A stretch of 64,000 bases of DNA from Isurus oxyrinchus (lineage: Eukaryota): contig JANJGN010000031.1 in NCBI GenBank assembly GCA_026770705.1, positions 1,426,001-1,490,000 on the forward strand, given 5' to 3'. The position numbers and the translations under genes were made by a program. Positions 12,050 to 64,000 of the stretch are shown here, piece after piece. Numbering within the stretch: position 1 is the stretch's first letter; each line of letters starts with the position of its first letter. The notes beneath the pieces are model-generated. The model made no database searches and had not been told where the DNA came from. It saw only the letters and a list, made by a program, of their open reading frames with translations.

Positions 12050-12700
12050 CGGATCAGCCAGGATCTAGATGAGGCTGAATTACCTCCTCCTTTGCTTATG
12101 TACGTAGCTAAAGAGGCTGAATGGCCTTGTCCTGTTCTTGTGTAATAGGTTGGAGGGGCTGAATGGCCTCCTTCTGTTCCCGTGTAACAGAATGGAGAGA
12201 GCCGAATGGCCTCCGAAAATTTCAATGCAACATGCTACTGAGTTTCTATTGTTTCCTTCCGTTCCTGTGTAACAGGCTGGAGATGGGCTGAAGGGCCTCC
12301 TCCTGCTCCCGTGCAATAAACACAGAAGATCTGAATGGTATTCTCATGTTCCTATGTAACAGGATCGACATTGGCTGAATGGGGCTCCTGTTATCCCTGT
12401 GTAACAAGTTTTAGGAGCTGAATAGTTGCTGTATAATAGGCTCGAGGGTGGATGAATAGCCTCCTCATGTTCCTGTGTAACATGGTAGAGATGGACTGAT
12501 TGGGATTCCTCTTGTTCTCGTGTAACAGTCATCGTGGGGGCTGAATTAGCCTCCTCCTGTTCCTATGTAACAACCTCGAGAGGGCTGAAAGACGTCCTCC
12601 TGCCCGTGTGTGACATGCTCGAGATGGGCTGAATGGGCTCCTCCTATTCCTGGGTAACAGTCTCAAGGGCAGAATAACCCCTTCCTGCCCTTGTGTTCTG
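12050..12700 (+). repeat. ~40-bp minisatellite derived from the CR1 3' tail
   Basis: About 15 degenerate copies of gggctgaatggcctcctcctgttcctgtgtaacaggctcga; shorter arrays at ~26700-26940, ~45660-45800 and ~48790-48985. Confidence 0.85.
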
Positions 12701-14779: not shown

Positions 14780-15115
14780 CCTTCCCTCAGCATCTACAAC
14801 CCTCCCTATCTATGTAACCACCTCCAGCCTCTACAATCCTCCATATCTCTGTAATCTCTACCAGCCCCTCAAACCCTTCCTATCTATGTAATCACCTCCA
14901 GCCCCGACAACTCTCCTCATCACTGTAATCTCCTCCAGACTCTAAACCCTCCCTATCTCTTTAATCTCCTCCTGCCCCCACAACACTCCCTGTCTCTGTA
15001 ACCTCGTCCAGCACCTACAACCGCCTATCTGTGTAACCTGCTTTTACAACCTGCCCCCAACAACTCTGTACCCTCCACCAGCCCCTTCAACCCTCCGTAT
15101 CGATGTAACCAGCTC
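14780..15115 (+). repeat. ~33-bp minisatellite (cctccagcccctacaaccctccctatctctgtaa)
   Basis: About 10 copies here; the paralog at ~36705-36750 has about one. Confidence 0.85.
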
Positions 15116-16226
15116 CCATCTCAAAACCTTCCGGGATCTGCAACTGTCCTAATTCTGGTCTCTGGAATATTCTCAATTTGAATTTCACTCTTATTGGCAG
15201 CGATCAACCACCAAGTAATGGGTTTCCTTCACTACATCTCTTCGCCTCTCTATCTCTCTCCTACTTTAAGATACTCCTGAAAACCTACCTCTTAGATCAA
15301 CTTTTTGGCCATCTACTCTAATATATTCTTACCCCGCTCGGTGTCAAAGCAGGTTTTATAATACCCAGGAGAAGTGTCTTGGGCTAGTTCACTACATTAA
15401 GGATGCCATCTAAATATAACTTTTTCTCCTTGTTGGCATTAAGGTTATAACAGCGTGAATTCACTAAACTGAAACCGGCGGTTAGAGGCTAAATTATGGG
15501 GATGGATTTTTTTTAATTTGTTCTCGTGATGTGAACGTGGCAAGACCAAAATTAATTCCGGAGCCTTGAAAAATCATGGTGAGCCACCTCGTTCAATGGC
15601 TGCAGCGAATGATGTGTGGGTACATCCCCGGTTAGGGAGGGTGTCCTAATGTTTACACCCAGCAACAGCGAAAGAAGACTTAAGTATTTCCCATTCCGAA
15701 TGGTGTGTGATTTGGAGGGGTATTTGCAGGTGGTGGTGTTCCCATGTCTCTGCTGACCCTCTCTCAGGTATAAATGTTGCAGTTTTGGATCACATTGCAA
15801 AAGAAACCTTGGCGAATTCTTACAGTGCATCTTGTAGATGGTACACACTGTGCTACTCAGCATCAGTAGTGCATGGAGTGAATGTTTCTGGATGTGGAGC
15901 CATCAAGCGGACTGCTTTGTCCTGGATAGTGTTTATCTTCGAGTGTTGTGGGAGCTGCACTCATCCAGGCAAGTGGAGAGTCTTCCATCACACTCCTGAC
16001 TTGTGCCATGTAGACAGTGGACAGGTCTTGGGGAGTCACGAAGTGAGTTACTTTCCACAGAAAACCCAGCCTGTGACTTGCCCTTTCAGCCCATTAGTTA
16101 CGTTTCTGGTCAATGGTAATCCCTAGGATAAAAACAAAGAAAACTGCGGATGCTGCAAATCCAAAACAAAAACAGAATTACCTGGAAAAACTCAGCAGGT
16201 CTGGCAGCATCGGCGGAGAAGAAAAG

Positions 16227-16265
16227 AGTTGACGTTTCGAGTCCTCATGACCCTTCGACAGAACT
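16227..16265 (-). ncRNA. Minimal type I hammerhead ribozyme motif (PLE), best-preserved form
   Basis: AGTT CTGTCGA a GGGTC atgag GACTC GAAA CGTC AACT: stem I, core variant CUGUCGA, stem II, GAAA, palindromic stem III, GUC cleavage site. Confidence 0.75.
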
Positions 16266-17680
16266 TGATTTCGAGTCCAAGAAAGAGTTGAAATATAAGC
16301 TGGTTTAAGGTGTGTGTGTGGGGGATCGGAGAGAGAGAGAGAGAGACAGAGGTGCTTGTGTAGACAAACAAGCAGTGATAGAAGCAGATCATCAAAAGAT
16401 GTCAGTGACAATGGTACAAAAGAACACATAGGTGTTAAAGTTAAAGTTGGTTATATTATCTAAACGAATGTGCTAATTAAGAATGGATGGTAGGGCACTC
16501 AAGGTACAGCTCTAGTGGGGGTGGGGGGAGCATAAAAAATTTTAAAATATTTAAAAATAATGGAAATAGGTGGGAAAAGAAAAATCTATAAAATTTATAG
16601 GGAAAAAAAGGAAAAAGGGGGAAACAGAAAGGGGGTGGGGATGGGGGAGGGAGCTCACGACCTAAAGTTGTTGAATTCAATATTCAGACCGGAAGGCTGT
16701 AAGGTGCCTAGTCGGAAGATGAGGTGTTGTTCCTCCAGTTTGCGTTGGGCTTCACTGGAACAATGCAGTAAGCCAAGGACAGACATGTGGGCAAGAGAGC
16801 AGGGTGGAGTGTTAAAATGGCAAGCGTCCATCACCCCCTACTCCTCAACCCCCTCCTATGGCACCACCCCATGCCCACGCAAAAGATGTAACACCTGCCC
16901 CTTCACTTCCTCTCTCCTCACCGTCCAAGGGCCCAAACACTCCTTTCAAGTGAAGCAGCATTTCACTTGCATTTCCCCCAACTTAGTCTACTGCATTCGT
17001 TGCTCCCAATGTGGTCTCCTCTACATTGGAGAGACCAAACGTAAACTGGGCGACCGCTTTGCAGAACACCTGCGGTCTGTCCGCAAGAATGACCCAAACC
17101 TCCCTGTCGCTTGCCATTTTAACACTCCACCCTGCTCTCCTGCCCACATGTCTGTCCTTGGCTTACTGCATTGTTCCAGTGAAGCCCAACGCAAACTGGA
17201 GGAACAACACCTCATCTTCCGACTAGGCACCTTACAGCCTTCCGGTCTGAATATTGAATTCAACAACTTTAGGTCGTGAGCTCCCTCCCCCATCCCCACC
17301 CCCTTTCTGTTTCCCACTTTTTCCTTTTTTTCCCTATAAATTTTATAGATTTTTCTTTTCCCACCTATTTCCATTATTTTTAAATATTTTAAAATTTTTA
17401 ATGCTACCCCTACCCCCACTAGAGCTGTACCTTGAGTGCCCTACCATCCATTCTTAATTAGCACATTCGTTTAGATAATATCACCAACTTTAACTTTAAC
17501 ACCTATGTGTTCTTTTCTACCATTGTCACTGACATCTTTTGATGATCTGCTTCTATCACTGCTTGTTTGTCTACACAACCACCTCTCTCTCTCTCTATCT
17601 CTCCGCACCCCCCCCCCCCCCCCCCAACACACACACCTTAAACCAGCTTATATTTCAACTCTTTCTTGGACTCGAATTCA

Positions 17681-17719
17681 AGTTCTGTCGAAGGGTCATG
17701 AGGACTCCAAACGTCAAGT
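17681..17719 (+). ncRNA. Hammerhead motif, mutated (GAAA to CAAA; stem I mismatch)
   Basis: agttctgtcgaagggtcatgaggactccaaacgtcaagt. Confidence 0.65.
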
Positions 17720-17854
17720 CTTTTCTTCTCCACCGATGCTGCCAGACCTGCTGAGTTTTTCCAGGTAATTCTGTTTTTGTTTTGGATTTCCAGCATCCGC
17801 AGTTTTCTTTGTTTTTATCTCTGTGTTTAATTGACTGCCACTGCTCTTCAAGAA

Positions 17855-20611
17855 ATGCCTACCTCCTTGAAGAAGTTCTGTTCCTCTCTGCGACAAGATT
17901 TCCGTATCTCTCTGTTGCCTTGTTCACCTTCTTTGCTTTCCATCTCCCTCCTGGTGTTTGACAAGGTGTTTACTAAAACCCGCTTTCACAGCCATATCTC
18001 CTTTCTCAGTGACTGTCTCCGTCTCCGACTTACCCCACGTGGATTTCAACTGAAATTCCACCCCTCATCTTTCGAACCCACCCAGGATTACCGGTATCTC
18101 CGGGACATAAAACGTTTCTCAGACTGCCGTTCCCGTCACATTCTGAAATCCACACTCAGTGCCATGCGCCGCCATATGAACACACTCGACCTCTCCCTCC
18201 AGCAGCACCGCCGTACCCTTTTTCAAAGCTGCGCGTGCCTCCAGTTTCATTTTATCCTTCGGCTCATCTGACGCCTCAACAAGAAACTTTTTCTCTTTCT
18301 CTCAACTGCTAAGGAATGCAAGCTCCAACAACTCATCGACACCAACACCCATCTAGGACCCTCCACCCCAGCCTGTCCCTCCGTCCCCACCCCATCTTCC
18401 AATCCCAGCCCCAGCCGTGTATTCACTATACCCCCTGACCTTCCCCTCTCCGATGCTGAACGTTCAGTGCTCAGCAAAGGACTTAGTTTCATACCCTTAC
18501 GCCCTCACCTCAATGAATTTCGGGCTCGGCATGATACTGAACTCTTCTTTCGCCATCTTGGTCTCCGGGCTCACTTCTTTGGGCAGAAGTCCTCTCCCAG
18601 TTCAACGGATCCTTTTACCCATCTCCAATATTCTCCTTCCACCTGGACCCCTCCCTCTGGATTCTTACCTTCTCTTGATCTTTTCATTGAGAACTGTCGG
18701 CGCGACATTAGTCGTCTCAATTTCTCTGCTCCTCTCACCCATTCTAACCTGTCTCTCTCTGAACTTACTGCACTCCATTCTCTCAGGTCCAACCCTGACA
18801 TTGTCATCAAACCCGCTGACAAGGGTGGTGCTGTTGTTGTCTGGCGCACTGACCTCTACCTCACGGAGGCTGAGCGTCAACTCGCAGACACTTCCTCCTA
18901 CCTCTCCCTGGACCATGACTCCACCACTGAACATCAAGCCATTGTTTCCAGGACTGTCACTGACCTCATCTCCTCTGGGGATTTCCCTCCCACAGCATCC
19001 AACCTGATAGTCGCCCAACATCGGACGGCCCGCTTCTATCTCCTACCCAAAATCCACAAACAGAACTGCCCCGGTAGACCGATCGTCTCAGCTTGCTCCT
19101 GCCCCACAGAACTCATTTCTCGTTATCTTGACTCCCTTCTCTCTCCCCTTGTCCAGTCCCTTCCCACCTACATCCATGAATCCTCTGACACCTTACGTCA
19201 CATCAACAATTTCCAGTTCCCTGGCTTCAACCGCTTCCTCTTCACCATGGGCGTCCAATCCCTCTACACCTCCATCCCCCAGCAGGATGGTCTGAGGGCC
19301 CTTAGCTTCTTCCTCGAACAGAGGGCCGAACAATCTCCATCCACCACTACTCTCCTCCGTCTGGCTGAACTTGTTCTCACGTTGAACAATTTCTCCTTCA
19401 ACTCCTCTCACTTTCTCCAAATAAAAGGTGTGCCTATGGGTACCCGCATGGGCCCCAGCTATGCCTGTCTCTTTATGGGGTATGTGAAACATTCCTTGTT
19501 GCAGTCCTACTCCGGCCCCCTTCCACAACTTTTTCTCCGGTACATCGATGATTACTTCGGTGCCGCTTCATGCTCTCGTCGGGACTTGGAAAAATTTATT
19601 AATTTTGCTTCCAATCTCCACCCCTCCATCATTTTCACGTGGTCCATCTCTGACACTTCCCTTCCCTTCCTTGACCTCTCTGTCTCAATCTCTGGTGATA
19701 GAAGGTCCATCAATATCCATTACAAACCCACCGACTCCCACAGCTACCTCGACTACAGCTCCTCACACCCCGCTTCCTGTAAGGACTCCATCCCATTCTC
19801 CCAGTTCCTTCGCCTTCATCGCATCTGTTCCGATGATGCTACCTTCAAAAACGGTTCCTCTGACATGTCCTCCTTCTTCCTTAACCGAGGTTTTCCACCG
19901 ACGGTCGTTGACAGGGCCCTCAACCGTGTCCGGCCCATCTCCCGCGCATCCGCCCTCACGCCTTCTCCTCTCTCCCAGAAACATGATAGGGTCCCCCTTG
20001 TCCTCAATTATCAACCCACCAGCCTGCGCATTCAAAGGATCATCCTCCGCCATTTCCGCCAACTCCAGCATGATGCCACCACCAAACACATCTTCCCTTC
20101 ACCCCCCTTATCGGCATTCCGTAGGGATCGCTCCCTCCGGGACACCCTGGTCCACTCCTCCATCATCCCCTACTCCTCAACCCCCTCCTATGGCACCACC
20201 CCATGCCCACGCAAAAGATGTAACACCTGCCCCTTCACTTCCTCTCTCCTCACCGTCCAAGGGCCCAAACACTCCTTTCAAGTGAAGCAGCATTTCACTT
20301 GCATTTCCCCCAACTTAGTCTACTGCATTCGTTGCTCCCAATGTGGTCTCCTCTACATTGGAGAGACCAAACGTAAACTGGGCGACCGCTTTGCAGAACA
20401 CCTGCGGTCTGTCATCAAGAATGACCCAAACCTCCCTGTCGCTTGCCATTTTAACACTCCACCCTGCTCTCTTGCCTACATGTCTGTCCTTGGCTTACTG
20501 CATTGTTCCAGTGAAGCCCAACGCAAACTGGAGGAACAACACCTCATCTTCCGACTAGGCACCTTACAGCCTTCCGGTCTGAATACTGAATTCAACAACT
20601 TTAGGTCGTGA
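17855..20611 (+). pseudogene. PLE RT + GIY-YIG endonuclease ORF (~918 codons) with one in-frame TGA
   Basis: Motifs IKPADKGG, GRPIVS, GVPMGTRMGPSYA, RYIDD, Cys linker PCPRKRCNTC and VYCIRC..LYIGET..RFAEH. TGA at 18269-18271 joins the two listed ORFs in frame. Motif-A Asp appears as Gly (TMGVQSLY). Confidence 0.92.
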
Positions 20612-20997
20612 GCTCCCTCCCCCATCCCCACCCCCTTTCTGTTTCCCCCTTTTTCCTTTTTTTCCCTATAAATTTTATAGATTTTTCTTTTCCCACCTAT
20701 TTCCATTATTTTTAAATATTTTAAAATCTTTTATGCTCCCCCACCCCCACTAGAGCTGTACCTTGAGTGCCCTACCATCCATTCTTAATTAGCACATTCG
20801 TTTAGATAATATCACCAACTTTAACTTTAACACCTATGTGTTCTTTTGTACCATTGTCGCTGACATCTTTTGATGATCTGCTTCTATCACTGCTTGTTTG
20901 TCTACACAACCACCTCTCTCTCTCTCTATCTCTCCGCCCCCCCACACACACACCTTAAACCAGCTTATATTTCAACTCTTTCTTGGACTCGAAATCA

Positions 20998-21036
20998 AGT
21001 TCTGTCGAAGGGTCATGAGGACTCGAAACATCAACT
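20998..21036 (+). ncRNA. Hammerhead motif with stem III mutated (GAAACATC)
   Basis: agttctgtcgaagggtcatgaggactcgaaacatcaact. Confidence 0.68.
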
Positions 21037-21901
21037 CTTTTCTTCTCCGCCGATGCTGCCAGACCTGCTGAGTTTTTCCAGGTAATTCTGTTTTTGTTTT
21101 GGATAATCCCTAGGATGTCGAGGATGGTGCATTCAGCGAAGGCAATGCCATTGGGAGTTGTTGGAGTTACATAGACTTGGTCTCTATTCCCTTGAGTATA
21201 ATACATTTAGTGGTTAGTTAATTGAGCATTAGAAAAATGTTAAAATGGGTTTATATATTTGAGAAAGGGAAACAGTTCCCTGTGGTAGCTGAATCCAGAC
21301 AAGATGGCAAAGTATTGAAATTCAGGCTAGGTATATTCAGATGTCCTGTTCTATTCCTTCGCATGACCAATGTGCTTATTGGAGTTAAGGGTGAAATTGA
21401 GCTTTCAAGAGAAACATATGGAACAAAGACAGTTAGATACAGTTAAGACACATTTGAACCATGGTCTAATTGAATGGCTCTACTGTTTCTGTGTAAAAGG
21501 CTCGAGAGACGTTTAAACGGCCTCTTCCTGCAGCTATATAACCGGTCTGTTTAGGGGCAATTGACCTCCTCCTGCTGAAAAGTCGAATGAGCTAAATGGG
21601 ATTCCGTTGTGCCACTTCAAACAATTTCAGTCGTCTGTTTCGTGGCCCTAGAGAGTCCTCTACTGTATTTGTGGAGAAATGCAACACAGCTTCAGTATAT
21701 CGATTGAGAACAAATTCACTCCTCTCTATCGTTCTTCCTTTGTTTATTACATTCTCTCTTTCCTTCCTTTCTTTCGATATTCCCGATGTACCTTTTGTCT
21801 CTTCTTCTTGTCAAAAACACATTCATTCTGCAAAATGAAATCAAGTTTTTTTGGGGACAGCGCATGATTTCCTCATTCACAGTTGTTTCCTGCCGCCTTT
21901 G

Positions 21902-21940: not shown

Positions 21941-22586
21941 AAGACTCCAGGCGCAGTAATACACGGCCGAGTGATCAGCCTGCAGGTTGGGGGTCTCCAG
22001 TTTGAATTCAGAGTCACTCGGTCTCCGGGCAGTGAAACCGTCCACCGGGTCCCTCGGAACTAACTTGGTTGATAGCAGCTGAGTAAAACATTATTTGGGG
22101 CTCTCTCTCCGGGTATTGTCTGTACCAGTTAATAGCAGGGTTAGTGCTGCCCTCCACATCGCAATTCAGTTCCACTGCCTGCCCGGGAAATATGGAGACA
22201 GTGGCGGGAGTCTGGCGGATCGTCTGCGAGTTCACGTCTGGAGAAGAGGCAGGAAGAGGAGGAGGTCAGAACCGGAGAAATTCTGGAGATGGAGAAGGAA
22301 AGTGGGAAAGAAAGAAAGGAAGGAAGGGGGAGGAGAGGAATAATGAAGGAAAGGAAATATAAAGGATTGTTGTTTAAACGGTTATTGCATAAAAAACATC
22401 ACTTACATTGAAATAAGATCAGCAATACATATATTTCAACTCTTTCCTGGACTGGAAATCAAGTTCTGTCGAAGGGTCATGAGGACTCGAAACGTCAACT
22501 CTTTTCTTCTCCGCCGATGCTGCCAGACCTGCTGAGTTATTCCAGGTAATTCTGTTTTTGTTCAGCAATCTCAAAACCACGTACAT
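21941..22586 (-). pseudogene. TRBV: V4 CAWS-family V pseudogene; V exon 21941-22237, disrupted leader 22407-22586
   Basis: A +1 frameshift near 22047 (GGA CCC G GTG) splits the V into two ORFs. Leader MYVVLRLLILFQ is interrupted by a 135-bp insertion. Confidence 0.92.
22427..22561 (+). mobile_element. 135-bp PLE 3' fragment containing the hammerhead motif (22462-22500), inserted in the V4 leader exon
   Basis: 8-bp TSD TCAGCAAT (22419-22426, 22562-22569); absent from the V8 leader. Confidence 0.9.
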
Positions 22587-24811: not shown

Positions 24812-25335
24812 AAGACTCCAGGCGCAGTAATACACGGCCGAGTGATTCCCCCGCAGGCTGGGGGACTCCAGCATGAACTTGGAGCCACTCGGTCTCTGGG
24901 CCTTGAAACCGTCCACCGGCCCCTCTGAACTCACGTGATTGGTGCTTGTGGAGTAAAACATCAGCTGCGGCTCCCTCCCCGGGTACTGTCTGTACCAGAA
25001 CATGTAAAGGTTACTGCTCGCCTCTACAGTGCACTCCAGTTCCACTTTATCCCCGGAATATCTGGAGACAGCAGCGGGAGTCTGGCGGATAGTCTGTGAG
25101 TTCACATCTGGGGAACAGAAGGAGAGCGGAAGCCGTCAGTAAAGGGGGTTAATTGGGTGTTGGGGAAACAAAGAAAGATAAGAGATAAACGTAGAGAAAT
25201 AGAAAGAAACACCAGAAGGAGAGAGAGCAAGGGAAGGTCAGCAAGTGGAGCGGAAAGCTCGAGGCTGAGCTGGAATTGTTGTCTGGAAAGTTCCTTACAG
25301 TGAAACATGATTAACGGCGGCAGCAACAGATACAT
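24812..25335 (-). CDS. TRBV: V5 CAWS-family V gene, potentially functional; leader 25299-25335, V exon 24812-25107
   Basis: Leader MYLLLPPLIMFH|GTAAG, acceptor cccag|AT, open V exon VNSQTIRQTP..LEC..WYRQ..NHSAVYYCAWSL. Confidence 0.92.
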
Positions 25336-25535: not shown

Positions 25536-27240
25536 TGGGGGTGTTAGTGGTCAGGGCAAAACTGGAGGGGTCACAACTCAGATTCATCAGGACAATACCG
25601 GAGTTTAGAGGGGTAAATTAAGAAGACAGGCTGCAGCAACCTTGCTGCATTCCCTGAATTTAGAATAGTGAGGGGTGACTTAATTCAACTGCTCAAACTG
25701 GAAAAGCAAAATTGAGGGTGTTTGATAGAAACTTTTCTGTCTGCTGGGAGGACTGTCCAAAAGAGTAGAATAACGTTAAAATTAGAGTTCGGAATGTGAG
25801 GTGAGCTTATTGATACATAGAAGATTCGGAGGTTGGCTTGAAAAGGCAGATACTGTTCTTCATGGGGGAAGAGATAACTCGGAGCAGTTTCAAAAAAGGG
25901 GGTCGCCCGTTTAAGAGGGAGATGAGGAACAATCTCTTTGAGAGTCGTGAATGTTTGCAATTCTGTACCCCAAAGGGCAGTGGAGGATGGGTCAATGAAT
26001 ATATTCAAGGCTGAGCAAAAGTTTTGAATTATTCGGGAAATAGGAGATAATAAATGCGGGAAGGCTGCAGACAAAGTAGATAAGGCTGCAATGAGATTTG
26101 CCATGATCTCATTGAATGGCAGAGCAGGCTCGTGGGGCCGAATGGCCTACTCCTGCTCTTCTTTCTTATGTCCTTACGTTATGACCGGCTAACTTGCTCC
26201 TGTATCAGTAACTACTTTCGATATTCCCGGGATAGTTTTCACTCTGACCAGCCTTGTATTCCCTGGAATGTAGAAGTTCGACGAGTGAGCAAATCAAGGC
26301 GTTAATGATTAAAGGATTTGATAAAGCAGATGGAGAGAAAGCATTTCCATTGGCTGGGGAAGGGTCCACCACACCGGCGCAGTACAATCAAATTCGACCC
26401 AGGCCGGTGGAAATCTTGAGCTCGGTCCCCTGCAAACAGCTGTGGAGCCTGGGGATCAACTGTAACCTTCAACAGCCGAATTAATCGAAAACAGAAAATG
26501 GTGGGAAAACGCAGGTCAGGCAGCATCTGTGGGGAGAGAAACAGATTTAACGTTTCGAGTCCGTCTAACACTTCCTCAGACCGGAAATGATAGATTTTTG
26601 TAATGTTGGGAGAACGAAAATACAGAGCGCAGGCGGGTAAATGGAGCTAAGAAACAGAGCAGCCACGATTCCATTGAATGAATGAACAGTTTCGCGGTGA
26701 GGAATCGCCTCCTCCGCCGACTCGAATGGCCGAATGGTCTCCCGATATTCCTGTGTAAAAACTTCATTAAGCTCGATGGGCCTCCTCCTGTTCCTGTCTA
26801 ATAGTTTCGAGAGGGGGCTGAAATGACCTCCTCCTTTATGTATGTAACAAATCCAAAGGGACAGAATGGGGACGTATGTAACAAAACCAAAGGGACAGAA
26901 TGGGGCTTCCGTATGTTGCCGTGCTGAATGGACGCCTTCTGTAACTTTGTTTCCTTTAAAACATTGTCCGGCGCTGGTCTCCTTGATGGTCTTTGTCCGT
27001 CCCCTGCTGCTCCAAGGAGAACGCGCACTTAGTGAATAAATTTCTATTATTTTTGCTGCAGTCACAAACTCCTAATTCTGGTACAATATTGTTAATTAAT
27101 CTCCAGTGTTTTTACATCCATTCCCTCACATTCATAGTAACCGGTTTCCTCTTATTGCCATAAACACGTTATTTAGCAATCGAGAAACAGGGGGCAACCG
27201 CCTGGTTCTCTCATTTACAGCTGTTTCCTGCCGCCTTTAG

Positions 27241-37400: not shown

Positions 37401-38541
37401 ATAAATGTTGCAGTTTTTGATCACATTGCAAAAGAAACCTTGGCGAATTCTTGCAGTGCATCTTGTAGATGGTACACACTGTGCTACATAGCATCGGTAG
37501 AACATGGAATGAATGTTTCTGGATGTGGTGCCATCAGGCGGACTGCTTTGTCCTGGATAGTGTTTATCTTCGAGTGTTGTGGGAGCTGCACTCATCCAGG
37601 CAAGTGGAGAGTCTTCCATCACACTCCTGACTTGTGCCATGTAGACAGTGGACAGGTCTTGGGGAGTCACGAAGTGATTTACTTTCCACAGAAAACCCAG
37701 CCTCTGACTTGCCCTTTCAGCCCATTAGTTAAGTTCCTGGTCAATGATAATCCCTAGGATGTCGATAATGGGGCATTCAGCGAAGGCAATGCCATTGGGA
37801 GTTGTTGGAGTTACATAGACTTGGTCTCTATTCCCTTGAGTTCAATACATTTAGTGGTTAGTTAATTGAGCATTAGAAAAATGTTAAAATGGGTTTATAT
37901 ATTTGAGAAAGGGAAACAGTTCCCTGTGGTGGCTGAATCCAGACAAGATGGCAAAGTATTGAAATTCAGGCTAAGTATATTCAGATGTCCTGTTCCATTG
38001 CTTTGCATGACCAATGTGCTTATTGGAGTTAAGGGTGAAATTGAGCTTTCAAGAGAAACATATGGAACAAAGACAATTAGATACAGTTAAGACACAGTTG
38101 AACCATGGTCTAATTGAATGGCTCTACTGTTTCTGTGTAAAAGGCTCGAGAGACGTTTAAATCGCCTCTTCCTGCAGCTATATAACCAGTCTGTTCAGGG
38201 GCAATTGACCTCCTCCTGCTGAAAAGTCGAGGGAGCTGAATGGGCTTCTGCTGTGCCACATCAAGCAATTTCAGTCGTCTGTTTCGTGGCCCTAGAGATT
38301 CCTCTGCATTATCTGTGGAGAAATACAACAGAGCTTCAATTCTCGATTGAAAACAAATTCACTCCTCTCTATCATTCTTCCTTTGTTGATTACATTCTCT
38401 CCTTCCTTTCTTTCGATATTCCCGATGTACCTTTTAGTCTCTTCTTCTTGTCAAAAACACATTCATTCTGCAAAATAAAACCAAGTTATTTGGGGGACAG
38501 CGCATGGTTTCCTCAATCACAGCTGTTTGCAGCCGCCTTTG

Positions 38542-38580: not shown

Positions 38581-39083
38581 AAGACTCCAGGCGCAGTAAT
38601 ACACGGCCGAGTGATCCGCCTGCAGGTTGGGGGTCTCCAGTTTGAATTCAGAGTCACTCGGTCTCCGGGCAGTGAAACCGTCCACCGGGTCCCTCGGAAC
38701 TAACCTAGTTGATAGCAGCTGAGTAAAACATTATTTGGGGCTCTCTCCCCGGGTATTGTCTGTACCAGTTAATAGCAGGGTTAGTGCTGCCCTCCACATC
38801 GCAATTCAGTTCCACCGCTTGCCCGGGAAATTTGAAGACAGCGGCGGGAGTCTGGCGGATCCTCTGCGAGTTCACGTCTGGAGAAGAGGCAGGAAGAGGA
38901 GGAGGTCAGAACCGGAGAAATGTTAGAGGTGGAGAAGGAAGGAGGGAAAGAAAGGAAGGAAGGAAGGGGGAAAGAGAGGAATAATGAAGGAAAGGAAATA
39001 TAAAGGATTGTTGTTTAAAAGGTTATTGCATAAAAACATCACTTACATTGAAATAAGATCAGGAAACTCAAAACCACGTACAT
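38581..39083 (-). pseudogene. TRBV: V8 CAWS-family V pseudogene (paralog of V4); leader 39047-39083, V exon 38581-38877
   Basis: Same +1 frameshift as V4 plus a TAG at 38705-38707; leader MYVVLSFLILFQ is intact. Confidence 0.92.
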
Positions 39084-46876: not shown

Positions 46877-47401
46877 AAGACTCCGGGGGCAGTAACACAT
46901 GGCCGAGTTATCCGCCCGCAGGCTGGGGTACTCCAGCTTGAACTCGGAGTCTCTTGGTCTCAGGGCGATGAAACCATCCACCGGCCCCTCTGGATTTACA
47001 ATTTTGGTGTTTGTGGAGTAAAACATCAGCTGCAGCTGCTTCCCCGGGTACTACCTGGACCAATATATCTCTGGGTTACTGCTCCCCTGCACAGTGAACT
47101 CCAGTTCCACTTCATGCCTCGGAAATCTGGAGACAGCAGCGGAGTCTGGCGGATAGTCTGTGAGTTCACATCTGGGGAAGGGAAGGAGAGCTGAAGCCGT
47201 CAGTAAAGGGGGTAAATTAGGTGTTGGGGAAACAAAGGAAGGAAATATATAAACATATAGAGACATAGAAAGAAAGACCAGAAGGAGAGAGAGCAAGGGT
47301 GTGTCAGCAAGTTGGACGGAAAGCTAGAGGCTGAATAGGAATTGTTGGCTGTAAAATTCCTTACAGTGAAACATGATTAACGGAGCCAGCAACAGATACA
47401 T
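46877..47401 (-). pseudogene. TRBV: V10 V pseudogene (CPRS end); leader 47365-47401, V exon 46877-47171
   Basis: 1-nt deletion in FR1 (~47141), Cys23 to Phe, TAG at 47051-47053, end reads AMCYCPRSL. Confidence 0.9.
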
Positions 47402-49279
47402 TTTCCACTTCAGGTTCCCTTTGAACCAATCTTCATCCCTGGTAACAAAACACTGGAAATACAATGCTCCTCCTTCTCACTCTGATTGACAGCCCAGCCC
47501 CTCCCATCAGCGTGACATTCCCGCCCTTTCCCGCTATCAGCCCTGCCCCTCACTCCTTGATTGGATTATGTGGAGCTGCGGGAATCCGGAAGTTGCAAAA
47601 GCACATGGCGGGGTTAGTGGACAGGGCAAAACTGGAGGGGTTACAACTCAGATTCACCAGGACAATACCGGGTTTAGAGCGGTAAATTAAGAAGACAGGC
47701 TGCAGAAACCTGGCTATATTCCTCTGAATTTAGAAGAATGAGGGGTGATTAAATTGAACTGTTCAAAATGGGAAAGCAAAATTGAGGGTGTTTGATAGAA
47801 ATTTTCCTCTCTGCTGCCCAATAAAGTGGAAAAGCCTTAAAATTACACTTCGGAATGAGAAGTGAACTTATTGATACACGGAAGATTGGTGGTTGGCTTG
47901 ACAGGACAGATACTGTTCTTCATGGGGGAATCTAGAACTAGGAGCGGTTTCAAAAAAAGAGGTGGCACATTTCAGAGGGAGATGAGGAGGAATTTTTTTG
48001 AAAACCGTGAACATTTGGAATTCTCTATCCCAGAGAGCAGTGGTGGGTGGGTCACTGAATATATCCAAGGCTGAGCGAGAGTTTTGAATTATTAGGGAAT
48101 CTGTCATAATAGATGCGGCAGGGCTACAGACAAAGTGGATAAGGCTACAGTGAGATCAGCCATGATCTTATTGAATAACAGAGCAGGATCGTGGGGCCGA
48201 ATAGCCTATTCCTGCTCCTATTTCATATGTCCTTACGTTCTGAACGGATAACTTGTTCCTGTATCAGTAACTAGTTCAGATATTCCCGGGATAGATTACA
48301 TTAAGACTAGTCTTGTATTCCCTGGAATGTAGAAGTTCGATGCGTGAGCTGATCAAGCGTTAATGATTAAAGGATTTGATAAAGCAGATGGAGAGAAAGC
48401 ATTTCCACTGGTTGGGGAAGGGTCCGCAACACCGGCGCAGAGCAATCAAATTGGAGCCAGGCCGATGGAAATTTTGAGCTCGGTCCCCTGCAAACAGCTG
48501 TCGAGCCTGGGGATCAATTGTAACCTTCAACAGCCGAATTAATCGAAAACAGAAAATGGTGGAAAAACGCAGGTCAAGCAGCATCTGTGGAGAGAGAAAC
48601 AGATTTAACGTTTCGAGTCCGTCTAACACTTCCTCAGACCGGAATTGATAGATTTTTGTAATGTTGGGAGAACGAAAATACAGAGCGCAGGCGGGTAAAT
48701 GGAGCTAAGAAACAGAGCAGCCAGGATCGCATTGAATGACTGAAAAGTTTCGCGGTGATGAATCGCCTCCTCCACCGACCCGAATTGACTCCCGATATTC
48801 CTGTGTAACAATTTCAAGAGAGGCTCGATGGGCCTCCTCCTGTTCCTGTCTAATAGTTTCGAGAGGGGGCTGAATGCACCTCCACCTTTATGTATGTAAC
48901 CACACAAAAGGGACTGTATGGGGCTTCCTTCTGCTCCTGTGATATATGCTCAGAGGAGCTGAATGGCCTCCTCCAGTTCCCGCGTTTCCTTGAAACCGTT
49001 GTCCGGCCCTGGTCTCCTTGATGGTCGTTGTGCGCCCCCTGCTGCTCCTAAGGAGAAAACACAGTCAGTGAATAAAGTTCAAACATTTTTGCTGCAGTCA
49101 CCAACTCTCAGTTCTGGTACAATATTGTTAATACATCTCGTGTTTTTACAACTATTCCCTCACTTTTGTAGTAGCCGGTCTCCTCTTATTGTCATAGACA
49201 CATTATTTCTGCAAACGAGAAACAGGGGGCGGCAGCGCCTGGATTCCTCATTCACAGCTGTTTCCTGCCGCCTTTGGGG

Positions 49280-55400: not shown

Positions 55401-56702
55401 GAAGATAGAGCTTCTGACTCAGAGGCAGGGTCACTACTCGCTGCGCCACAAGACCGCCTCCTGAGTTTCGATTCCTGTTAAACCAACATGTCAGGCACCA
55501 GGGTCTGGCAACAGCTTCGATCGCCTCCTGCTGTCCACTTGGAGAAAGAAACCCGGTGCCTGGAAACACTGGACGTTATATTGTTCTCTTTGTCTCTTTA
55601 TTTCTTTCTTCATTTGTCAAAGCCTTTCTCTTACTTGCTGTTTCATTATTTTCTGCGTCACTTCTTTCTTCCTGTCTTTAGTTTCATTTATTTCTCTATT
55701 CTGACTCTTACATTTTTTTAAACCCTGAAACAGGACGATGAGACTGGGCATGGCCTATGACGTGTTTATTACTTTCTCTGCTCCTGTCTACCTATCCTTC
55801 TTATTTTCATTTTTTCATTCGCCCTTTCCTCGGGTTGGCTACTTTATTTTCTATTGTCCATTTTTCAACCTTTTGTAATGAACACAGAGTTTATAAACAC
55901 ATTCCTGCTGCAGATCGAAAGCCCATCTCTGTGACTCCCGGTCCGCCCTTTATTTACCCGCCAATAAGAACAGCGTAAAAATGCTGAAAGAAGCAAGAAG
56001 CCAGAGTCCATCTCCCCCTCCCCACGGTTCCCATGTCTGTCCCTACTCAGGGGTCAGTTCACTAACTCCACTGATTAATCCCATAAAGGCATTTTACTGC
56101 CCCTCGCTGTACCAGCATGGACTGTATCACACAGAAACAGACCAGTCAATCCAACAGCCTCGTGCTACTGTTTAAAGAGCGGCTTTAATCCTCTCCTCCC
56201 ATGCAAACTGATTTCAACCCTTCAACACACCCTTCATCATTCATCTGTTTATCCAGCTTCCCCTGAAAACCATCTCTGCTCTTCGCCCCATGGTTCCAGA
56301 ATCTCGCCTCTCTGGGAAAATGAGATTTCTCCTGAAAGCCCGATGGGATATATTGTATTATTAATCATCTCATATTGATGACCCCTAGTTCTGGTCACGC
56401 CTGCAAGTGAAAATATCTCCTGTCCATCTCCTTGTTGAACCGCCTTCCATCATGTTAAATTCCTCTATCAGGATAGCAGCCATTCTGGTGGAAACAGCTC
56501 CAGTCTCTTCCGTCTTTCCCGATAGTAACAGCCGCTCAGTTGCTTGTAAATTTGTCTGTGCACCTTTTCCACAGCTTCTATACCTGACATTCAACCCAAC
56601 TGATCTCTTGTTCTTCCCAAAACTGCCTTCACTTTGGTAAAAAGAAACAAGAGGCAGCATCGCCTGGTTTCCTCATTCACAGCTGTTTCCTGCCGCCTTT
56701 GG

Positions 56703-56741
56703 GTGTTTTGTTGAGCTGCTACATCTCTCTGAGTCACTGTG
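56703..56741 (-). other. 23-RSS of V13
   Basis: CACAGTG - 23 nt - ACAAAACAC. Confidence 0.87.
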
Positions 56742-57263
56742 AAGACTCCGGGGGCAGTAATACACGGCCGAGTTATCCGCCCGCAGGCTGGGGGACTCCA
56801 GCATGAACTCGGAGTCTCTTGGTCTCTGGGCGGTGAAACCGTCCACCGGCCCCTTTGGATTTACAATACTGGTCCCTCTGGAGTAAAATAGAAACTGCAG
56901 CTCCTTCCCTGGGTCCTGTCTGTACCAGAACATGTCAGGGTTACTGCTCCCTTCCACAATGCACTCCAGTTCCATTTCATCCCCAGGAAATCCGGAGACA
57001 GCAGCGGGAGTCTGGCGGATAGTCTGTGACTTCACACATGGGAAGGAAAGGAGAGCGGAAGCCGTCAGTGAAGAGGGTAAATTGGGTGTTGGGGAAACAA
57101 AGGAAGGAAAGAGACAAACGTAGAGAAATAGAAAGAAAGACCAGAAGGAGAGAGAACAAGGGAAGGTCAGAAAGTGGAGCGGAAAGCTGGATGCTGAATA
57201 GGAATTGTTGTCTGGAAAGTTCCTTACAGTGAAACATGATTAACGGAGCCAGCAACAGTACAT
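56742..57263 (-). pseudogene. TRBV: V13 V pseudogene (CPRS end); leader 57228-57263, V exon 56742-57037
   Basis: V exon is open, but the acceptor AG is mutated to AT and the leader has a 1-nt deletion (ATG TAC TGT TGC TGG CTC CGT TAA). Confidence 0.9.
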
Positions 57264-57336
57264 CTTCCACCTCAGGTTCCCTTTGAACCAATCTTTATCC
57301 CTGGTAAGAAAACACAGCAAATACAATGCTCCTCCT

Positions 57337-58193
57337 GGCTTGGCCTAAATAGCCAAGTGGTTATGATACTGGGTTTGTAACCCCAAGATCAAGAGTTCAA
57401 ATCTCACAATGGGAAACAATGTAACTTCATCTGAAAAACAGATGGAAACGGTTTGTACTCAAAAGAGATACAGCAGTTCAAGAGGAAAAAATGAGCAGTT
57501 GTGAATGAACCACTTGAGGGCTTGGCCTAAATAGCCAAGTGGTTATGGTACTGGGTTTGTAACCCCAAGATTGAGAGTTCAAATCTCACAATGGCAAAAC
57601 TATGAAATAATGTAACTTCATCTGAAACAGATGGAAACAGGTTTATACTCGAAAGGGTATCAAAAGTACAAATCTCACAATGGCAAACTATGAAACAATG
57701 TAACTTCATCAGAAACAGATGGAAATGGGTTTGTGCTCGAAAGAGTATCAAGCATTCAAAATCTCACAATGGCAAAAATATGAAACAATGTAACTTCATC
57801 TGAAACAGATGGAAACAGGTTTGTACTCGAAAGAGTATCAAAAGTACAAATCTCACAATGGCAAACTATGAAACAATGTAACTTCATCAGAAACAGATGG
57901 AAATGGGTTTGTGCTCGAAAGAGGAAAAAATGAGCAGTTGTGAATGAACCACTTGAGGCTTGGCCTAAATAGCCAAGTGGTTATGGTACTGGGTTTGTAA
58001 CCCCAAGATCAAAAGTACAAATCTCACAATGGCAAATTATAAAACAATGTGACTTCATCTGAAACAGATGGAAATGGGTTTGTGCTCGAAAGAGTATCAA
58101 GCATTCAAAATCTCACAATGGCAAAACTATGAAACAATGTAACTTCACCTGAATAGGAACAGATGGAAATGGGTCTGTACTCGAAAGAGTTAT
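57337..58193 (+). mobile_element. tRNA-Thr(TGT)-headed concatemeric SINE-like insertion (3 heads, 7 ~89-bp units)
   Basis: 12-bp TSD AATGCTCCTCCT (57325-57336, 58194-58205); A box TAGCCAAGTGG, loop TTTGTAA, B box GAGTTCAAATC; absent from the paralogous promoters of V5, V7 and V10. Confidence 0.82.
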
Positions 58194-60700
58194 AATGCTC
58201 CTCCTCCTCCTCCTCACTCTGATTGGTAGCCCAGCCCCTCCCATTCAGGCTGACAGACCCGCCTTTTCCAGTTTCAGCCCCGCCCCTCACTCCCTGCTTG
58301 GATTATGTAGAGCTGCGGGCAACAGGAAGTTGCACATAGGAGTGGGGGGTGGCGGGGGGGGCGCTGTTAGTGGACAGGACAAAACTGGAGGGATCACAAC
58401 TCAGATTCACCAGGACAATGCTGGGGTTTACAGGGGTAAATTAAGAAGACAGGTTGCAGAAACTTTGCTGCATTCTCCTGAATTTAGAATAGTGAGGGGC
58501 GCTTTAATTGAACAGCTCAAACTGGAAAAGCAAAATTGAGGGTGTTTGATAGAAACTTTTCTCTCTGCTGGGAGGACTGCCCAACAAAGTGGAATAACCT
58601 TAAAATTAGAGTTCGGAATGAGAGGTGAGTTTATTGACGCATAGAAGGGTCTGAGGTTGGCTTGCCAGGGCAGATACTGTTCTTCATGGGGGAATCTAGA
58701 ACTAGGAGCAGTTTCAAAAAAAAAGGGTTGCCCGTTTGAAGGAGATGAGGAGGAATCTCTTTGAAAACTGTGAATATTTGGAATTCTCTATACCAGAGAG
58801 CAGTGGAGGCTGGGTCATTGAATATATTCAAGGCTGAGCTAGAGTTTTGAATTATTAGGGAATCGGGGATAATGGATGGGGAAAGGCTGCAGACAAAGTG
58901 GATAAAGCTATAATGAGATCAGCCATGATCTTACTGAATGGTGGAGAAGGCTCGTGGGGCCTGGGTTAACATAATGCATTAATTTTGGCACTAAATTTCT
59001 ACTCAGTTAAAGGGCTTGTTAGTTCAGATAAGATTTTCCATTAGGATGAATGTTTTAATATTTTTGTAATTCCAAAACATAAATTCTTTACAAAGAAATG
59101 AAAGCAATGTTTTCCTCCTTTTACTGTCCTTTGGAAAAATTGTTGAGCCCACCACTTACTGAAAGGAAGCAGGGGATGTTTCTGTCTACCGACCAATCAG
59201 ATGGTGTGATGAGAGTGATTTTCCCTTTGCCCTCTCACCCATTGCAATGTAGTTAAAATCAAGAACTTTGAAAGAATGAAGACAATCAAACTTTCAGTCC
59301 TGCTTTGCTTTTGAATTCAACTACAAGAAAAAAGCTTGTCTGTTGGGTTACCCCTTCCTACCTCTAGATTCTGATCATTCCCTTCTGTGGTTATTTTTGT
59401 TTCTCTGTTGTGCACATTCTGTGCCCCCTCACCCTCGCCCTACCAGCTTCTATTGTCAGCATTTTGAAAAATTTTCTCCTAAGCTGCTAATACACCATCT
59501 CACAAACTGTTCCCTCCCTGCTTCCTCTTTGCTTTGCAATCAGAACGTACAGGATTGTTTCTAACTCTTCAACTTCTAATTCCCCAGGCACATGAAGCTA
59601 TGCAACTACTGTAATTTTACCAACTGTTGATGATCTTTTAAACCTATCATTTATTATTAACTGCAGTGTGCTCCACACTCTACAACCTTCAAACTAAACT
59701 GCGATTGGTGAAATATGGCTGTTTATCACTGAGAAATACTGCTTGACAATTTCTGTAACCTGAAGGGGTACAGAACCAATCCCCCTCCAGTAGGTTGTGT
59801 GCAAGTTGGTCATCTTATATACTGAATGGTGATGCACTAATCTATGAGTTCCTGCAACTGTAAATATCAGTTTTTCAAACCTTTTTTAAGCCAAAGCTTC
59901 AGCTATCCAACTTCCCCTCTCCATATGAAATAAAACTGAAAATATTGGACCTGCAACAGTGAAAGCAAGGATCGTAAAAATCACAAGTAAAAAACCAGTG
60001 GGGAAAACGAAAGTATTACAGAGCCAAGAAAATTAAAGCATCGAAAATATATGAATAATCATACAGGGGATTGAAAAGACCCATTTAGAATAGGATAAAA
60101 CAGAATAAAAGAGAAGCTGAGATTCAGCAGGTAAAGAGAGGTTACCTAACAGCTAAAGGATGGAACCACTTAAAGATATTTCAAAGGGAATGGTTCCTCA
60201 CTGATACCTTTTGGGTCTCCCTTCCTTTTCCTTTTGATGCATTTTATAAGTGGGTTTTCCTACTGTACCAGCTCCAATCGAAACAGCAACCTCCTTGTTT
60301 TCTATTGAATTGTTGACTGACTCGTTTATAGATTTCCAGCATTTTCTGTTTTTATTTCTAATTTCCAGCGTTTCTGCATGTCCCTTTTGATTTATGACTA
60401 ATCAATCTCTGATAGCATTGTACACAGTGACAGAACTTTCCCAAATTTGCTCTAAATGCGGTAGCGGGTGGGTAAAACGTTGTTTTACCCACTGGCCACA
60501 ATGGCAGCTTTACGCAGATTCGTCCCAAACCCGCCTCCTTATTTATGCACTCCTGGGAAACACGCTGCTTCCATGGCGAGCAGATTCTCATTCACCGCCC
60601 GCCATCACCCCGCTGCTGCATCACCCCGGGTGCCATATTTAAAGTCCAGCCACAAGCACACATCCCAGTGCTTCCAGCTCACCACTGCTGCTCCAAAGAC

Positions 60701-63069: not shown

Positions 63070-63805
63070 TCCAATGCATATCATCATCATCCTCCACAAA
63101 TCTATCAGCTATGAGAGCCTCATCCCCGTTGTTATTTGTCTCTGAGGATCCCCTCACCCTCATCCCTGTCAGTGTCCTCCTCATCCAAGGAGACCTCCAG
63201 CTCCTCCATCTCCTCCTCTCAATCTCGTATCACCTTTGAAGCACCAGGTTATAAAGGACGCAGCAGACGATGATGATGCATGACACCCTCTGTGGACTGT
63301 ATTGCAGGGCTCCACCAGCACTGGAACCTCACTTTCAGCATCCCAATGGTCTGCTCCACCAAGTTGTGAGCAGCTACATGAGCCTCATTACAGTGTCGCT
63401 CTGCTGCAGTCTGAGGCCGCCACACGGGTGTCATCAGCCACGGCCTCTGTGAGCAGCCCTTGTCCCCGAGCAGCCATCCCTGCAGCTTCTGTGGACCCTG
63501 GTAGACTCCAGGGATCTGTGACCGACTGAAGGTGTAGGAAACTGTGCGCACACCTGCAGGATGCATTTCTGGTGGTCGCACACTAGCTGCACATTCAGCC
63601 AATGGAACCCCCTGCAGTTGATGTAGTTCACCTTGTGTTGTGATGGAGACCTGAGCACCACATGAGTGCAGTCGATCGCACCCTACACCCGTGGGAAACC
63701 TGAGATCTGGGTGAATCCAATTGTTCATGCATCCTGGCTGTCTTAGTCCTGGGAAAAATGCACAAAGTTGTGTTGCCCTTGCAAAGCTGGCATCCATGAC
63801 CTCAA
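63070..63805 (-). pseudogene. HARBI1-family DDE transposase fragment
   Basis: GAIDCTHV..YINCRGFHWLNVQLVCD; GWLLGDKG..PWLMTP..VEQTIGMLKVRFQC; acidic C-terminus; frameshifted. Confidence 0.88.
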
Positions 63806-64000
63806 TGCATGAACCAAAGTGCTAAATTCTTTGCCGGCAATAATTCACAGATTATTTCATAAACACCCGAAAAGCGACCTTGAATCTGAGAGAAGTGAGT
63901 TAACGGTTTTCAGCAGATTCTGAAACCGCTGTCAGGGGGCAGGTGTCCTGCTGCTGAATACACCTTGTACAGTGTGAACCATCAGAGGCGTTTAAAGGTT

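Follow-up and report, generated by a model that had tools for sequence, protein, structure and literature searches.

The insert at 57337-58190, in a window of 64,000 nt (the whole stretch of DNA that was analysed), worked like a tRNA SINE: the SINE and short SINE-derived-satellite (sSat) features tested were found, and the hammerhead test failed. We consider it reasonably probable that a read-through dimer or short multimer of an abundant tRNA-Thr-derived SINE was retroposed to this site and then grew locally by stepwise duplication. The duplications may have taken place here or at a donor locus; the resulting array was probably a functionless, decaying by-product.

A retroposition scar, comprising a target duplication and an empty site, was present at this one locus. 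The initial annotation had described an 857-bp insert with a perfect 12-bp target duplication, missing from three paralogous promoters. The exact 12-bp core (57325-57336 and 58194-58205) was confirmed, and the site was empty in all three paralogous V promoters, as read from the breakpoints in a self-alignment of the window. However, a 15-bp duplication with one mismatch was the preferred reading, and the insert was therefore taken to be 854 bp long on the forward strand. The TACA that opens the duplication was present in two of the three empty sites, and the right copy carried two extra CCT.

57322 to 57336, forward strand: left copy of the target-site duplication, 15 bp, with TACA at its start and the exact core at 57325-57336
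58191 to 58205, forward strand: right copy of the target-site duplication, with one mismatch and an expanded CCT run 3' of the copy

Neither a poly-A tail nor a plus-strand TTTT was found in the insert, as had been annotated, but the second absence was unremarkable, since TTTT was also absent from 167 of 1000 dinucleotide shuffles of the insert and from 596 of 1000 shuffles of a non-redundant 177-nt version. The missing TTTT was therefore rejected as an argument for a single Pol III read-through transcript.

The window contained a cluster of duplicated V gene segments, recognised from open reading frames, self-alignment and a Pfam V-set match (E = 1.7e-10). The segments carried 23-spacer recombination signals and were mixed with LINE and Penelope-type reverse-transcriptase sequence; from repeat and motif likeness we take the host for a shark or a relative and these genes for probable T-cell-receptor beta V segments. 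The insert lay 73 nt upstream of the ATG of one of them (57263, reverse strand), between that ATG and the CCAAT-like and GC-box-like motifs of the right flank. The leader of this segment carried a 1-nt deletion and an early stop.

56703 to 57263, reverse strand: host V segment with a 23-spacer recombination signal and a frameshifted leader (pseudogene); Pfam V-set E = 1.7e-10

The closest left-flank paralog, at 47401 (reverse strand), was also frameshifted, in a different place, and the V segments with ATG at 25335 and 31134 were open from the leader through V. Elsewhere in the window, other short tandem arrays occupied 14788-15036, 12115-12214 and 12538-12645, with periods of 37/110 bp and 42-43 bp; those of 42-43 bp presumably resemble a shark LINE/SINE tail. 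A Harbinger-type DDE transposase remnant lay at 63249-63821 (reverse strand; Pfam DDE_Tnp_4, E = 1.8e-7).

Within the insert, the modules were ordered as head 1, unit U1, a 46-nt spacer, head 2, units U2-U5, a partial spacer, head 3, and units U6 and U7:

57337 to 57472, forward strand: monomer 1, a complete SINE copy with head, short linker, tail U1 and TACA at 57469-57472; genomic contigs end at 57471-57472
57473 to 57518, forward strand: non-family spacer of 46 nt, probably donor flank between two monomers; skipped exactly by other genomic tail-to-head joins
57519 to 57658, forward strand: monomer 2, consisting of head 2 (A and B boxes) and unit U2 (57570-57658); RF00005 at 30 bits, genomic 5' ends at 57517-57520
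57659 to 57923, forward strand: units U3, U4 and U5, each a T-arm/B-box plus tail, with a 178-bp higher-order repeat (165-nt block repeated with 4 differences); U3 and U5 differ at 0 of 87 positions
57919 to 57958, forward strand: exact re-copy of 57480-57519, the 3' part of the spacer (40 of 40), joined at AAGAG microhomology
57957 to 58095, forward strand: head 3 recombined onto U6, a unit of the U3 type whose B box has decayed; head 3 equals head 2 over 53 nt
58096 to 58190, forward strand: U7, the 3'-terminal unit, with a loop 5 nt longer and the most head-like tail; genomic 3' ends at 58192

The three tRNA-Thr(TGT)-like heads that had been annotated were present, starting at 57337, 57519 and 57957, but only head 2 (tRNA-like at 57525-57596, anticodon TGT by Rfam) reached the RF00005 gathering score (30 bits against 29). 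Head 2 thus provided the tRNA-related head with A and B boxes that characterises a SINE2; head 3 scored 15.5 bits only, and head 1 was absent from the Rfam match list. No other Rfam family exceeded its threshold in the insert, and ARAGORN returned 0 tRNAs, so that no functional tRNA was predicted there. The 5' end of the family lay 13 nt before the A box. Seven units of about 89 bp, with junctions alternating between two types, were found as described, while the 38-bp spacer reported before heads 2 and 3 had to be redrawn: a shared stretch did recur, but it measured 46 nt before head 2 and was represented by its 3' part only before head 3. The best match of the 46-nt spacer elsewhere within the 64-kb window was no better than E 0.45. 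The spacer also matched 56673-56685 in inverted orientation over 13 nt, which was treated as probable chance.

Placement on 56900-58700 at 80% likeness was carried out for contigs from 4 of the 24 public runs listed, covering two organisms. Three were DNA runs (organisms A, A and B, with 21,494, 24,249 and 9,410 contigs). X19, a run guessed to be of RNA, gave 263 contigs, many with long unrelated flanks, and was uninformative on Pol III or circular RNA. Summed depth in X1, which does not equal copy number, rose to as much as 2.1e6 inside the insert against 119-1,441 in the flank bins. Among the rows listed, loose ends with unrelated flanks (agreement 0.36-0.45) piled up at 57517-57520/57958 and at 57836/58095/58192, and the 3' loose letters started with TACA or CA in all four runs. 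The parts of the array belonged to a very high-copy, dispersed tRNA SINE that measures about 135-150 nt and has fixed ends, varied flanks, no poly-A and TACA after the 3' end. The dispersal, abundance and fixed ends of a SINE2 were found in both organisms, the abundance being one of contig depth and not of copy number. The idea of a family tandem by nature was not supported, as the genomic copies had fixed monomer ends and heterogeneous flanks.

Because monomer 1 ended at 57472 and other genomic tail-to-head joins skipped exactly 57473-57518, the spacer was placed outside the family; with the monomer ends fixed, the 89-bp unit was the T-arm (B box) and tail of the SINE and no separate element. 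Tail-to-head joins of 57836 to 57958 were found in at least 32, at least 27 and at least 15 contigs of the three DNA runs, with side lengths of 30 or less. Some of these head-to-tail SINE neighbours in X1, X3 and X5 had 4-13 letters between them, often TACA or TGCA first, and some a depth of 500-1,000. Such neighbours are not rare, which speaks against a purely monomeric family; they may fit repeated insertion at the TACA left by an older copy, or dimeric subfamilies. The family had at least one short-linker and one long-linker variant, and the loop of its first tail hairpin varied in length. ACAGG and ATGGG, both present in the array, appear to have arisen by CpG decay from a single ancestral motif.

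At the locus itself, organism A contigs ran into both junctions (57217-57360 and 58166-58453) at a depth of 118-188, compared with about 30 for some flank contigs, and were 1-11 letters off the window; the filled promoter may be present in several paralogous copies. In organism B, the listed contigs stopped at 57337 and started again at 58215. Within the 64-kb window, the best match to the tail outside the insert had E = 3.8. Exact-pattern scans of viral contigs and prokaryote genomes gave no match, nor did blastn against plasmids. The sole metagenome match (L001) was 19 nt in an unrelated sequence of 57% GC and was dismissed as chance.

The growth of the array could be read from differences between its units. 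U2, U3 and U7 differed mutually at 8-12 of about 88 positions, several derived letters were common to U3, U5 and U6, and junction letters were common to U4 and U7. Such nested sharing of private changes indicated sequential duplication, as one rolling-circle round would not yield nesting, and the array was likely built by stepwise duplication rather than by a single rolling-circle event. The rolling-circle multimer proposed initially was therefore set aside in view of the identity of U3 and U5, the exact copy of the spacer and the nested changes. The wider proposal, that a tRNA-headed retroelement had arrived as a multimer, was retained in part: there was one target duplication, and more than one monomer probably arrived, though probably not through rolling-circle copying. 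The layout of an sSat was present, with seven T-arm plus tail units, shorter than the SINE and derived from part of it, of which five were internal where the definition asks for at least four, end units that reach the SINE ends, and a spacer and a head interrupting.

The tail resembled the D-arm/anticodon region of the head, with 12-14 of 17 positions matching ungapped. Among 300 shuffles, those as good numbered 11 for U1, 18 for U2, 0 for U3, 2 for U4, 0 for U6 and 1 for U7. With gaps, the likeness was weaker except in U7 and depended on unit and scoring (U2, 383 of 2000 and 585 of 1000 shuffles; U4, 48 of 2000 and 141 of 1000; U7, 0 of 2000 and 0 of 1000). Its alignment was shifted by 3 nt relative to the junction. 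This internal likeness of head and tail would make a seed available for unequal exchange. A duplicated-tRNA origin, in which the tail would be a second, degenerate tRNA half, was only moderately supported. CYN and Twin are multimeric SINEs composed entirely of tRNA, and the tail here may likewise be a second degenerate half.

The following course of events would account for the array. Pol III would start at the head and, as the monomer lacks a terminator, would continue past its end, across 46 nt of donor flank, and transcribe a second copy as well. A LINE or Penelope reverse transcriptase would then prime at the tail of the second copy on a TACA-containing target, leaving a 15-bp duplication without poly-A. 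A tail-to-T-arm junction, and with it the 89-bp unit, would arise either from unequal exchange where head and tail resemble each other or from one template jump; a template jump is a possible source of the first such junction. Microhomology-guided duplications would then copy units, the spacer and one head.

An unlikely alternative, though the best placed of those considered, was that the array had been expanded beforehand at a donor and that a single Pol III read-through transcript then brought all 854 nt to this site. The single target duplication enclosing all modules, the coincidence of the 5' end of the insert with the family start and the lack of TTTT would agree with this, although that lack was at chance level. 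Letters of the junction type also had non-zero depth in the contigs. The window's junction letter at 57846 was rare there, accounting for at most 496 of a depth of 642,475 in X1, 3,924 of 101,631 in X3 and 6,582 of 214,442 in X5. The X1 depth of the junction letters at two sites (at most 496 and at most 605) was approximately that expected from this locus alone (118-188 depth, three junctions), leaving little room for many copies of such an array. Contigs over the junctions of the locus carry 24-25 element letters only, below the 31-letter rule for bridging. Position 57388, the start of the T-arm, was joined to a tail in X3 contigs too, with different junction letters. Retroposition of a short multimer followed by local duplication was kept as the preferred reading.

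Both hairpins annotated in each unit were present and formed real folds, but the first was broken in three of the seven units, and the fifth pair of the GAAA hairpin was supplied by the array junction, not by the natural element end. Folding z-scores were -2.76 for monomer 1 (57337-57475), -2.96 for its tail and -1.17 for the tail of U7. Among these seven closely related units, two-sided, compensatory changes were seen at 0 of 10 pairs of the named hairpins and at 1 of 16 pairs, in one unit, of the RNAalifold structure; the first helix had three breaking changes among the seven units. The majority genomic letters at 57711 and 58148 restored hairpin pairs that were broken in the array, and the array copies therefore look decayed, with the stem kept by the family. 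In the available portion of PMC3747384, a terminal stem-loop is described as common where SINEs and LINEs have strict 3' recognition.

The initial annotation had also linked the tail to the Penelope-like element (PLE) hammerhead. PMC4209133 gives the core, the closed helix II and the palindromic 15.2-16.2 as the defining features of that hammerhead. On the plus strand of the insert, CTGANGA occurred 0 times, and no Rfam ribozyme was found in the insert up to E = 10. When the core was tested as C3-U4-G5-A6-N7-G8-A9, or its U3-A8 variant, before helix II, the best score was 4 of 6 in four of the seven units, with positions 3 and 6 wrong, and the core was unreadable in the other three; four Penelope copies in the window scored 5 of 6. 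A helix II closed by G10.1-C11.1 and followed by GAAA was found in four of the seven units. None of the four readable units had the palindromic 15.2-16.2, or helix III with its cleavage triplet, all having GAG after GAAA, compared with CG in three of four readable PLE copies.

A reading judged quite improbable derives the tail from a Penelope hammerhead, by decay or repurposing, and has the SINE mobilised by a Penelope-like element; it concerns the partner and would be compatible with local expansion. The combination of a G-C-closed 4-bp helix, GAAA and a 4/6 core was present in four of the seven units and was rare in shuffles (22, 24 and 12 of 5000), in a test made post hoc, and the 8-mer ACTCGAAA was common to the tail and both PLE hammerhead types in the window. 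Penelope insertions in the window also have duplications of 13-15 bp and about 7-8 bp and lack poly-A. Against this, besides the faults of core and palindrome, the similarity of the tail to intact Penelope copies was not above shuffles in any of 12 comparisons (301-945 of 1000), and the tail was more like its own head than like the Penelope ends of the window. The 4-bp tail helix aligned with the tRNA anticodon arm, and the PLEs of the window continue for about 60-70 nt beyond the hammerhead before their 3' end, a segment missing from the SINE. Comparison with two PLE types in the window revealed no 3'-end sequence in common with an autonomous PLE, and the LINE or PLE expected to share the 3' part of the unit did not appear within the 64-kb window. 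A Penelope partner for the SINE is thus unlikely. No tRNA-headed SINE with a Penelope partner turned up in the literature searched; non-autonomous Penelope-type elements of Chlamydomonas, by the available text of PMC8557442, have head-to-tail copies and share 3' ends with their partners.

A Penelope-like insertion at 16127-21104 had inverted and tandem ends, a 779-aa open frame (18272-20611), no poly-A and a 13-15-bp target duplication when compared with the empty paralog near 37746-37760. Predicted hammerhead copies at 16238 (reverse strand), 17708, 21025 and 22489 had a non-canonical CTGTCGA core (U at position 6) and a bulged A before helix II in all four readable cases. A short, 5'-truncated insertion at 22425-22562 had a duplication of about 7-8 bp, and its paralog near 39059 was empty. 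An older remnant of a second Penelope-type hammerhead, at 26530-26590 and 48590-48650 (reverse strand), had been duplicated along with the V-gene cassette.

Two further readings were thought very unlikely. In one, most of the array would have been made at insertion, by template jumping or rolling-circle re-copying of the reverse transcriptase; the arrangement of a complete copy followed by 5'-shortened ones is what this would be expected to give, both junction types share one breakpoint, and a similar junction exists elsewhere in X3 contigs, but copies made simultaneously should carry independent changes only, whereas the subsets U3/U5/U6 and U4/U7 share derived letters, two units are identical while others differ by about 10%, and a non-family spacer was re-copied from an internal microhomology. 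The other would be an uncatalogued, very-high-copy shark SINE lacking a LINE tail and poly-A, its 3' end a rebuilt tRNA half or dead Penelope hammerhead, which a Penelope-like reverse transcriptase inserts at TACA, with concatemers as a routine product.

Under the preferred reading of a retroposed short multimer and local duplication, the insert is possibly an undescribed, abundant shark SINE, and its significance is modest. The array represents a well-resolved SINE insertion turned short satellite, in which one can read not only the empty site and the target duplication but also the order in which segments were duplicated; it adds a host lineage to the squamates and bivalves known for SINE-derived tandems, and it is a marker of one V-gene lineage. 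A short SINE without poly-A or a recognised LINE tail, and with a TACA end, would imply a new recognition rule. The point of most value is which reverse transcriptase recognises the SINE tail, and if a Penelope partner were true, the SINE would offer a naturally occurring trans substrate of a reverse transcriptase about which little is understood. As the initial annotation had stated, the family was not recognised: the literature searched, which left most subscription papers, supplements, Repbase, Dfam and SINEBase outside, held no description of it, and it may already be catalogued in such a database or supplement.

Several known systems resemble parts of the insert, as far as the available parts of the papers cited here describe them. 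Of the chondrichthyan SINEs, CmiSINE/SINE2-1_CM and SacSINE1 (PMC5499810) and HE1 (PMC3747384) share with the family a tRNA head, high copy number and a shark-type host. They possess CORE, Deu or V domains and L2/CR1-derived tails, and the head of CmiSINE is tRNA-Ala (PMC5499810, PMC3747384), whereas in the monomer here a Thr(TGT) head is followed by only about 65-75 nt; it is set apart from CmiSINE, SacSINE1 and HE1 by their published descriptions alone. A monomer this short seems to have no room for those domains and an L2/CR1 tail. Hagfish SINEs mobilised by RTE (Kojima 2020, PMC7245038) have a similar duplication length, about 17 bp; however, they carry RTE-derived tails and no strong target preference is described for them, while TACA follows the 3' end of the family here. 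Tailless retropseudogenes (PMC3747384) likewise lack poly-A and possibly prime through short homology to the target, but their truncations vary, in contrast to the one fixed 3' end of this family. The minimal hammerheads of PLEs (Cervera and de la Pena 2014, PMC4209133) and non-LTR retrozymes are, like the array, tandem and have a G-C-closed helix followed by GAAA; the array has neither the catalytic core nor a palindromic helix III.

Multimeric SINEs offer closer parallels. The jerboa Dip, in which multimers are common and reach up to eight head-to-tail units (PMC8466645), and the tandem SINEs of bivalves (PMC11481361) are, as in this family, head-to-tail neighbours of a high-copy tRNA SINE, although the accessible descriptions of both show mostly full-length units, whereas most units of the array are without the 5' head, and a poly-A tail is missing. 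The nearest counterparts were the squamate sSats, especially snake sSat3 (Vassetzky et al. 2023, PMC10702118), whose unit, a 3' tRNA head with box B and the downstream SINE body, corresponds to that of the array; the extended end units reaching the SINE ends, the alternating monomers and the variability of short loci are similar too. The array differs in its SINE and lineage, in having seven units only, and in its three heads and non-family spacer. It also lies inside one clear target duplication, a subject with 0 matches in the available text on sSats (PMC10702118), where neither duplication nor target site is discussed.
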